Virus record (IMG/VR): IMGVR_UViG_2531839200_000006
Length of the DNA: 6,636 nucleotides
Origin: a virus
Taxonomy: Duplodnaviria > Heunggongvirae > Uroviricota > Caudoviricetes
Strand: one strand, 5' to 3'
Positions 1 through 3,000 of this stretch are shown one piece after another. Position 1 is the stretch's first letter, and each line of letters starts with the position of its first letter. The position numbers are program-made.

Positions 1-3000
1 ATTGCCGCCCACTGTGAGTCATATTCATCCTGACTTTCCAGAACCATACGAATCGCCCGCTGACGGACTTCGGGGGAAAAACGAGTATTTTTAGTCATCC
101 TGTTTACCTCTTTCTCAGGGAGTTTAGTCTCCAGGATTTCCGGGGCGGTTCACCGGGTTCTGTATTTTTGCCCTCAGTAAGCTGGCAATGGCGTTATCCA
201 GTACGCTTGATTCCATCCCTTTATCCATGCAGCGACAGTTTCCTGATTTAACACCGCGCCATCTTGACCATCTGAAAACCCTTATTGCTAAGGGGGCAAA
301 TCAGTGTGCGCGGGCAGGGGATAAATTACCGGATTTACTTGATGAATATATCAGAGCAACAACTGAATAATATGATGAGCGCTGTCACAACTGCATTACA
401 GCCCCTGATAAGGGCATTGCCGGTGACGCCAGTTGAATGGGCTGATCAAAATTATTATCTGCCTAAAGAATCTTCATATGGTGAGGGCGAATGGAAAACG
501 CTGCCATTCCAGATCGCCATCATGAACAGTATGGGGAATGATCAGATCCGCACTGTTAATCTGATTAAATCTGCCCGTGTTGGCTATACAAAGATGTTGC
601 TGGGGGGGGGCGGGTATTTTATTGAGCATAAATCCCGAAACAGTCTGCTTTTTCAGCCCACGGATTCTGCCGCTGAAGATTTTATGAAGTCTCACGTGGA
701 GGCGACGATTCGGAACGTGCCATGCCTGAAAGACCTTTCCCCATGGCTGGGTCGTAAACATCGTGACAATACTCTCACGCTGAAACGCTTTTCATCGGGC
801 GTCGGTTTCTGGTGCCTGGGCGGCGCTGCCGCCAAAAACTACCGTGAAAAATCCGTTGACGTGGTCTGCTATGACGAACTTTCCTCGTTCGAGCCGGATG
901 TCGAAAAAGAGGGCTCGCCAACCCTGCTGGGGGATAAGCGTATTGAGGGGTCGGTGTGGCCAAAATCCATTCGCGGCTCGACGCCTAAAATCAAAGGCAC
1001 CTGCCAGATCGAAAAAGCCGCTAACGAGTCGGCGCATTTTATGCGTTTTTATGTGCCCTGCCCGCACTGTGGGGAGGCGCAGTATCTGAAATTTGGCGAT
1101 GAGTCCACGCCTTTTGGGCTTAAATGGGAGAAGGACAGCCCTGAAAGTGTTTTCTACCTCTGTGAACATCATGGCTGCGTGATCCATCAGTCTGAACTGG
1201 ACCAGAGCAACGGGCGGTGGATCTGTGAAAACACGGGCATGTGGACCCGTGACGGTCTGACGTTTTTCAGCGCCCGGGGTGATGAAATTCCGCCGCCGCG
1301 CTCCATCATGTTCCATATCTGGACGGCGTACAGTCCGTTCACCACCTGGGTACAGATTGTCTATGACTGGCTGGATGCACTGAAAGATCCCAACGGCCTG
1401 AAAACCTTTGTGAACACCACGCTGGGCGAGACCTGGGAAGAGGCCGTGGGCGAAAAACTCGATCACCAGGTACTGATGGATAAGGTGGTGCGTTACACGG
1501 CGGCGGTGCCTGCCCGGGTGGTTTATCTGACGGCGGGCATTGACTCGCAGCGAAACCGTTTTGAGATGTATGTCTGGGGATGGGCTCCGGGAGAGGAAGC
1601 CTTTCTGGTGGATAAAATCATCATTATGGGGCGTCCTGATGAGGAAGAGACGCTGTTACGTGTGGATGCGGCGATCAACAAAAAATACCGCCATGCGGAT
1701 GGCACCGAAATGACTATTTCCCGTGTCTGCTGGGACACCGGGGGGATCGATGGTGAAATTGTTTATCAGAGATCAAAAAAACACGGTGTTTTCCGGGTGC
1801 TGCCGGTAAAAGGCGCATCTGTCTATGGCAAGCCGGTGATCACCATGCCAAAAACCCGCAATCAGCGGGGCGTGTATCTGTGTGAAGTGGGAACGGACAC
1901 CGCAAAAGAAATTCTCTATGCCCGTATGAAAGCCGATCCCTCGCCTGCGGATGAAGCCACGTCGTATGCCATCCGTTTTCCTGATGATCCGGAGATTTTT
2001 TCGCAGACAGAGGCGCAGCAACTGGTGGCGGAAGAGCTGGTGGAGAAGTGGGAAAAAGGAAAGATGCGTCTGCTGTGGGATAACAAAAAGCGGCGTAACG
2101 AAGCGCTGGACTGCCTGGTGTATGCCTACGCGGCATTACGTGTGTCCGTGCAACGCTGGCAGCTTGATCTGGCTGTACTGGCAAAATCCCGGGAAGAAGA
2201 GACGACCCGGCCAACCCTGAAAGAACTGGCAGCGAAGCTGTCCGGAGGAGTGAATGGTTACAGTCGCTGAACTGCAGGCGCTGCGTCAGGCGCGCCTTGA
2301 TTTATTAACCGGTAAACGGGTGGTGTCTGTCCAGAAAGATGGTCGCAGAATTGAATATACGGCGGCTTCTCTGGATGAGCTTAACCGGGCGATCAATGAT
2401 GCGGAGTCGGTACTGGGGACAACCCGGCGTCGCCGTCGTCCGCTGGGAGTGAGGTTATGAAACGAACGCCTGTCCTGATTGATGTGAACGGCGTTCCGCT
2501 TCGTGAGAGTCTCAGCTACAACGGGGGCGGTGCAGGATTTGGCGGGCAAATGGCGGAGTGGTTGCCACCGGCGCAGAGTGCCGATGCGGCCCTGCTGCCC
2601 GCGTTGCGTCTGGGGAATGCCCGGGCAGATGATCTGGTGCGCAATAACGGAATAGCGGCCAATGCGGTGGCACTGCATAAGGATCACATTGTCGGGCATA
2701 TGTTTCTTATCAGCTACCGTCCGAACTGGCGCTGGCTGGGGATGCGGGAGACCGCAGCAAAAAGCTTTGTCGATGAGGTGGAGGCGGCCTGGTCGGAATA
2801 CGCCGAAGGGATGTCTGGCGAGATCGACGTGGAAGGAAAACGCACGTTCACGGAATTTATCCGTGAAGGTGTGGGCGTTCATGCGTTTAACGGCGAAATC
2901 TTTGTGCAGCCGGTCTGGGATACGGAAACCACGCAGTTATTCCGTACGCGTTTTAAAGCCGTGAGTCCGAAACGGGTGGACACGCCAGGACACGGTATGG

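Follow-up and report, generated by a model that had tools for sequence, protein, structure and literature searches.

How did the gene for the small terminase subunit of a lambdoid prophage come to begin, in mid-frame, at the edge of an insertion sequence (IS)? The question is raised by IMG/VR record IMGVR_UViG_2531839200_000006, a stretch of Caudoviricetes DNA of 6,636 nucleotides that is referred to here, at its full length, as the window. Its first 152 bp are the end of an IS, and the bases that follow continue a Nu1-type terminase gene, nu1. The original prediction, made from the sequence alone, was that an IS629-like element inserted in this gene had split it. Our analysis makes it very probable that the locus records a simple insertion of IS629/IS1203 into nu1 of a prophage that was already decaying and that is of the Sp4 type known from Escherichia coli O157:H7.

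The left (IRL, transposase-proximal) end of an IS629/IS1203-type element of the IS3 family occupies positions 1 to 152 on the minus strand, the window being cut within the IS. Read from 152 downward, the minus strand is TGAACCGCCCCGGAAATCCTGGAGA, with the canonical TG terminus at 152/151, exactly where it had been predicted, and a 25-bp left inverted repeat (IRL) at 128 to 152. A ribosome-binding region and then the orfA ATG (98 to 96) follow about 30 bases beyond the IRL start sequence; orfA runs towards position 1 and has its first 32 codons in the window (translation MTKNTRFSPEVRQRAIRMVLESQDEYDSQWAA). Positions 1 to 400 were searched by megablast against 5426 complete RefSeq E. coli genomes, where 6049 records matched and the best match reached at least 99% in 1422. 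Positions 1 to 152 proved 100% identical to IS629-type left ends, and the features underlying the matches listed bear annotations as transposases of the IS3 or IS629 family.

The far side of the IS lies outside the window and was read from one public assembly with an identical junction, a locus on a 5.29-Mb contig of GCA_013141925.1 (L007 below), retrieved through the exact 60-residue product of the frame that opens with the ATG at 188. The only difference between this locus and window positions 1 to 3000 is in the number of bases in one G run. Its IS is complete, with 1310 bp (8656 to 9965) and 25-bp imperfect terminal inverted repeats, the right one (IRR) at 8656 to 8680; the last 152 bp (9814 to 9965) are 100% identical to window positions 1 to 152. 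The whole element is 100% identical to many plasmid-borne copies, which RefSeq calls "IS3-like element IS1203 family transposase". Its transposase of 404 residues matches the HTH_Tnp_1, HTH_21 and rve (DDE) profiles, and similar RefSeq copies are annotated with a "programmed frameshift" and an "AL1L pseudoknot". The TG...CA ends, imperfect inverted repeats of about 25 bp, a target duplication within the 3 to 4 bp range, orfA and orfB with a programmed -1 frameshift and a DDE transposase, and near-identity to a named copy are all those of an IS629/IS1203 element of the IS3 family. IS1203 is an isoform of IS629, and sub-type I of the O157:H7 "IS629" is IS1203-like (Rump et al., PMC3271280), so that "IS629-like" seems a fair name for the element at 1 to 152. 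Compared with the IS629/IS1203 of O157:H7 the 152 bp are identical in sequence and nothing differs in kind. The L007 copy, with its TG...CA ends, 25-bp imperfect repeats and 3-bp duplication, is prophage-borne, as are most O157 IS629 copies; 62% of the copies in O157:H7 lie within prophages or prophage-like elements (PMC3271280).

Downstream of the IS, on the plus strand, lies the 3' fragment of nu1, codons 99 to 169 with the stop, at 153 to 370. Codon 98 is rebuilt by chance from the last IS base and CC, and the frame from 152 to the TAA at 368 to 370 comprises 72 codons. The match to Phage_Nu1 (PF07471) starts at the first residue: residues 1 to 53 align with profile positions 111 to 163 of 164 at 45.3 bits (cutoff 30), and an intact nu1 homologue scores 67.9 bits. 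PHROG 1790, "terminase small subunit", matches residues 1 to 72, and PHROG 57 matches as well, which agrees with the prediction that the frame is Nu1-like from the first codon past the junction. The score above the profile cutoff, the overlap with the gpA-type gene and the cos site upstream in relatives mark the gene as Nu1-type; what the window lacks is a complete gene with the N-terminal helix-turn-helix domain. A check of the frame upstream of 188 found a stop at 125 to 127 within the IS and no start codon before ATG 188. Because of that stop and the lack of an earlier start, the Nu1 frame has no N-terminal domain contiguous with 153, and the possibility that it possesses a start of its own and a complete N-terminal domain there did not hold.

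Where, then, is the rest of the gene? In L007, codons 1 to 98 of nu1 lie to the left of the IS together with an intact cos region whose cosN is identical to that of lambda. The IS thus splits nu1 after codon 98 of 169, leaving the C-terminal 40% or so of the gene in the window, and the 5' fragment in L007 runs on for 77 codons through IS antisense sequence before it meets a stop. The flanks in L007 read gattgacaCCG on the left and CCGggttctg on the right, whereas the empty site in strain TW14588 and in Sakai prophage Sp4, gacaCCGggttc, contains CCG only once. The bases at 153 to 155 of the window are therefore the right-hand copy of a 3-bp target-site duplication, a small correction to the predicted junction at 152/153, which otherwise stands: the first three non-IS bases belong to the duplication. 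The presence of CCG on both IS flanks and of a single CCG in uninterrupted sites argues for simple transposition and not deletion. It had been predicted that the 5' part of nu1 would either lie beyond the IS or be deleted; in L007, where the other IS end, the 3-bp duplication, the 5' part of nu1 and cos are all present, the former applies and the latter does not. The length of the duplication agrees with the 3 to 4 bp reported for IS629, for which no target sequence specificity was found (PMC3271280).

On this evidence a copy of IS629, of the IS1203 isoform that E. coli O157:H7 commonly carries, would have transposed into nu1 of an Sp4-type lambdoid prophage, landing behind codon 98 (of 169) in the orientation opposed to that of the late operon, and duplicating CCG. 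The mechanism would be the copy-out-paste-in of the IS3 family, via a circular intermediate and with a DDE transposase made by programmed -1 frameshift; copy-out-paste-in, along with IEE-assisted excision, is described for IS629 in a preprint (bioRxiv 10.1101/2023.06.07.543989).

TW14588 suggested a different origin, an IS-adjacent deletion, in which the IS would first have inserted upstream of cos, as in that strain, and a 681-bp deletion from the IS end would then have taken cos along with nu1 up to nucleotide 290. This O157:H7 strain is 99.97% identical to window positions 151 to 6400. It has the window's IS end, likewise oriented and adjoining ylcI, at a point exactly 681 bp farther upstream. 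A full 169-codon nu1 and an intact cos region separate that IS end from gpA, and the would-be deletion junction shows an overlap of 2 bp (CA). Deletions adjacent to IS629, IEE-promoted ones included, are also known. However, the identical junction in L007 has both flanks and a perfect CCG duplication, and the place where TW14588 has its IS is vacant in L007. An internal deletion has left the TW14588 IS with 1073 bp, and a different duplication (GTT) flanks it, which makes it a separate event; the CA overlap is accounted for by the IS ending in CA. We therefore reject a deletion of this kind in the window on the L007 flanks and the CCG duplication, and consider it unlikely. An assembly artefact, that is, a misjoin at a repeated IS end, could be imagined from the approximately 20 IS629 copies per O157:H7 genome and from the recurrence of the window's nu1 sequence in other prophages. 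The same junction in another public assembly, on a contig of 5.29 Mb and with a left junction and target duplication that match, leaves this explanation next to no probability.

The consequences of a simple insertion can be judged by comparison with lambda. In lambda gpNu1, the N-terminal 68 or so residues form a winged helix-turn-helix that binds cosB, the middle part drives self-assembly, and the C-terminal 40 or so residues bind gpA. Residues 73 to 164 of the intact nu1 homologue, its C-terminal 92 residues, are 46% identical to residues 86 to 177 of gpNu1, whereas its N-terminal 72 residues do not align, which suggests a cosB specificity different from that of lambda. The split after T98 corresponds to lambda T111, and the fragment in the window to approximately residues 111 to 177 of gpNu1. 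In lambda nu1 likewise overlaps the start of the gpA-type gene, the difference being that the window holds only a 3' fragment of nu1. Upstream of nu1 in TW14588, at a distance of 195 bp, there is a lambda-identical cosN, as there is in L007 and Sakai, in each case in DNA that would fall outside the window; in the intact relative, the match to the left end of lambda is complete over cosN and the next 45 bases. By analogy with the lambda domain map, the IS would separate the cos-recognition part of Nu1 from the part for self-assembly and gpA binding, and since the two parts are separated the prophage should be unable to form its own terminase holoenzyme, even though gpA is intact. A loss of terminase function is thus to be expected. 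The predicted cosB-binding helix-turn-helix in the missing part is plausible and weakly indicated: in Pfam the N-terminal 72 residues of the intact homologue give a sub-threshold match to Sigma70_r3 (residues 2 to 30, E = 0.038), and a sequence search of the intact homologue against Protein Data Bank (PDB) chains gave no meaningful match.

Several points weigh against this account of the locus. The expected loss of function is derived from lambda gpNu1 domain maps, and the N-terminal 72 residues, the very part that would be cut off, neither align with lambda Nu1 nor match a solved structure by sequence. The window ends 152 bp into the IS, and its own far side is seen via L007 only. An identical right junction would also be expected if the segment holding cos and the 5' part of nu1 had later been lost, e.g., by recombination with a second IS629 copy, and TW14588 has such a second copy, 684 bp upstream. 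Under this last alternative the insertion would have occurred as in L007, and a secondary deletion or inversion on the far side, via another IS629 copy, would have left the 5' part of nu1 and cos no longer adjacent. Rearrangements of this general kind do occur among relatives. In the Sp4 region of Sakai the lysis-gene block, beside an IS629 remnant of 1073 bp, is on the opposite strand to that of TW14588, and the nu1 of SW070919 lacks its N-terminal part and borders directly on an IS3-family element, beyond which the DNA is unrelated. However, there is no direct evidence for one here, and window positions 1 to 3000 match L007 in everything except the length of one G run. We hold a secondary rearrangement to be very unlikely; the window's own genome presumably has the same far side as L007, with a simple insertion in nu1.

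The host prophage is of the Sp4 type of E. coli O157:H7. The Sakai annotation of the corresponding region reads "prophage Sp4, lambda-like phage" and includes the same 267-nt head-protein remnant. Sakai Sp4 and the window agree in gene order and in nu1 sequence, and they share an 88-codon remnant of the major capsid gene E, fused to the major tail gene V. They differ in the IS that interrupts nu1, which in Sakai is ISEc8 (IS66 family), flanked by an 8-bp duplication (TTAAAAAA) and inserted at a point 37 bp upstream of where the window has its IS; the IS629 site itself is empty in Sakai. All lambdoid Sakai prophages except Sp4 encode an intact terminase, the nu1 of Sp4 being IS-disrupted (Asadulghani et al. 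2009, PMC2669165), and the head, major tail and packaging functions of Sp4 were scored defective (PMC2669165). The nu1 gene of the Sp4-type prophage thus exists in three states: intact (TW14588 and others), split by ISEc8 (Sakai and others) and split by IS629 (the window and L007).

The IS629-split state is rare and strain-specific. The IS-nu1 junction was found in 0 of the 5426 complete E. coli genomes, where the 15 matches covering at least 80% of the query all consist of two separated pieces. At the places read among loci with the exact gpA protein, the IS629 allele was likewise not found, nu1 being either intact or ISEc8-split (L018 has no nu1 call). The uninterrupted homologues in TW14588 and Sakai Sp4, with which a comparison had been proposed, both have the IS site empty. 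The insertion, for which a 42-mer (CCAGGATTTCCGGGGCGGTTCACCGGGTTCTGTATTTTTGCC) could serve as a tag, is a further example of the strain-specific IS629 sites that IS-typing of O157:H7 draws on.

Within the Sp4 type, IS629 copies of 1073 bp are found in TW14588 (L001, 5080 to 6152) and in Sakai (L017, 32131 to 33203), of the same length and in different contexts. The TW14588 copy, which has lost 237 bp internally, is a minus-strand element flanked by ylcI and cos. The Sakai remnant is a plus-strand copy beside an esterase gene; pchA and the lysis genes there are on the opposite strand relative to TW14588, which suggests an IS-associated inversion within Sp4.

A second lesion, at the other end of the window, bears on when the IS arrived. 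The remnant of E at 5986 to 6252 on the plus strand has 84 genuine codons and is then out of frame: aligned to an intact E homologue of 342 residues, its residues 1 to 84 are identical, and the 88-residue alignment, at 95% overall, diverges after residue 84. RefSeq notes it as "major capsid protein, incomplete". V follows on the same strand from about codon 6, at 6237 to 6636 where it runs off the window, and is 86% identical to residues 6 to 138 of an intact homologue of 246 residues. What has been lost is most of E, the genes from there through U and the very start of V: E breaks off after its codon 84 and is joined to V near the latter's codon 6. The junction lies at approximately 6227 to 6237, where the E and V homologies overlap by some 10 bases (aacacgaatt), an indication that short homology mediated the deletion. 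The E-V junction is contiguous in 300 of the 5426 complete genomes, and all seven such matches listed are O157:H7 or unserotyped E. coli. These alignments and the differing genome distributions bear out the prediction that the E-V deletion is a lesion independent of the IS. With the deletion junction in 300 of these genomes and the IS junction in none, the deletion is old and lineage-wide, and the IS insertion recent and strain-specific.

The probable order of events would accordingly begin with loss of the segment from E to the start of V across the O157:H7 lineage, with the insertion of IS629 in one strain coming later. The IS would then have hit an already defective prophage, and since head and tail genes were already missing, a further phenotype is improbable and the insertion was probably neutral. 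The whole fits a stepwise decay of the prophage, in which a lineage-wide head-tail deletion was followed by different IS elements in the same terminase gene by strain. The loss of nu1 need not immobilise the element's DNA, as Sakai still packages the DNA of Sp4, for which the terminase of prophage Sp14, with a nearly identical cos, is "most likely" responsible (Asadulghani et al. 2009, PMC2669165). The 3' ends of nu1 in many O157, O26 and O103 genomes are 100% identical to that of the window, which makes a supply of terminase in trans plausible for its prophage too.

The IS is oriented opposite to nu1, the gpA gene and the late operon, as had been predicted. It had further been proposed that the IS probably also blocks late transcripts, and this is where the original prediction found no support. 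Scans of window positions 1 to 700 found no promoter-like or terminator-like sites, and no outward promoter from the IS end that could drive gpA. The late-transcript strand of the full IS has a single weak terminator candidate, a 5-bp stem in IRR, and the total counts are within shuffle expectation. The Q-modified RNA polymerase of lambdoid phages, moreover, reads through terminators. A close parallel is O157:H7 strain FRIK1275, in which IS629 in stx2 likewise sits inside the late operon of a lambdoid prophage; the downstream terminase transcript is not abolished there, and plaque-forming phage that still bears the IS is produced (PMC7430833). The orientation of that copy was not checked, and the two cases differ in that the gene interrupted in the window is itself essential for packaging and its prophage is also without head and tail genes. 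With no strong terminator in the scans and the stx2::IS629 data speaking against a strong block, we regard a block of late transcription by the IS as unsupported. Translation of gpA could suffer nonetheless, as its start lies within an nu1 remnant that lacks a start of its own.

The nu1 copy in the window can be regarded as a pseudogene, with little significance beyond annotation. The feature is an ordinary, already catalogued kind of O157:H7 IS629 insertion, and IS disruption of Sp4 nu1 has already been published for Sakai. A wider meaning would follow if the approximately 900 bp of cos and nu1 in these lambdoid prophages were a recurrent landing zone for IS elements in Shiga-toxin-producing and other E. 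coli, a proposal that we regard as unlikely. At least seven separate IS events are found around cos and nu1. Within nu1 they include the IS629 at codon 98 in the window, the ISEc8 of Sakai and an IS629-type copy at another site in O121 strain WL1277 (L003, 1862 to 3152). IS629-type copies also lie upstream of nu1, at 392 bp in TW14588, at 276 bp in IAI39-like strains (L027, about 2650) and at 223 bp in O103:H2 strain FWSEC0007 (L005, 3150 to 3195), and the IS of SW070919 abuts its truncated nu1 at L004 position 3154. If it is real, such a zone could reflect target preference, e.g., for bent, IHF-bound cos DNA, or instead selection for knocking out the packaging of resident prophages.

Two further observations were made on IS copies in this region. 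One IS629-type insertion in a related prophage has a TCC duplication and lies 27 bp to the left of cosN. The IS629-type copies near cos and nu1 in related prophages of other serotypes are all oriented as in the window, although the search joins same-strand pieces only, so that a bias is not established.

In five IS-free loci (L006, L010, L011, L013 and L015), only the 60-residue C-terminal Nu1 frame is called, although no IS is present, and approximately 750 bp upstream of it are without a called gene; the 5' part of nu1 in these loci may be frameshifted or of a different type.

The large terminase subunit gene, of the gpA type, is intact in the window, with 642 codons at 342 to 2270 on the plus strand and Pfam matches to GpA_ATPase and GpA_nuclease; its first 29 nt, from 342 on, are shared with the nu1 remnant (stop at 370). 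It contains, in frame, a run of G at 602 to 610 that varies in length between assemblies, with 9 in the window, TW14588 and Sakai, and 11 in L007 (10415 to 10425), where gpA is uncalled. The gpA of strain PV15-279 is annotated as frameshifted. Either slippage at a hot spot switches gpA off here, or the variation in length is a homopolymer error of long-read assemblies. The exact gpA protein is widespread in public assemblies, occurring in 4026 index blocks, and in 2323 of these the longest contigs are of 5 to 10 kb. Such short contigs fit a region bounded in draft assemblies by repeats, namely IS elements and shared prophage genes. V is present in several prophages per genome, and the 6.6-kb window, which starts in the IS and ends in V, may itself be a repeat-bounded contig of this kind.

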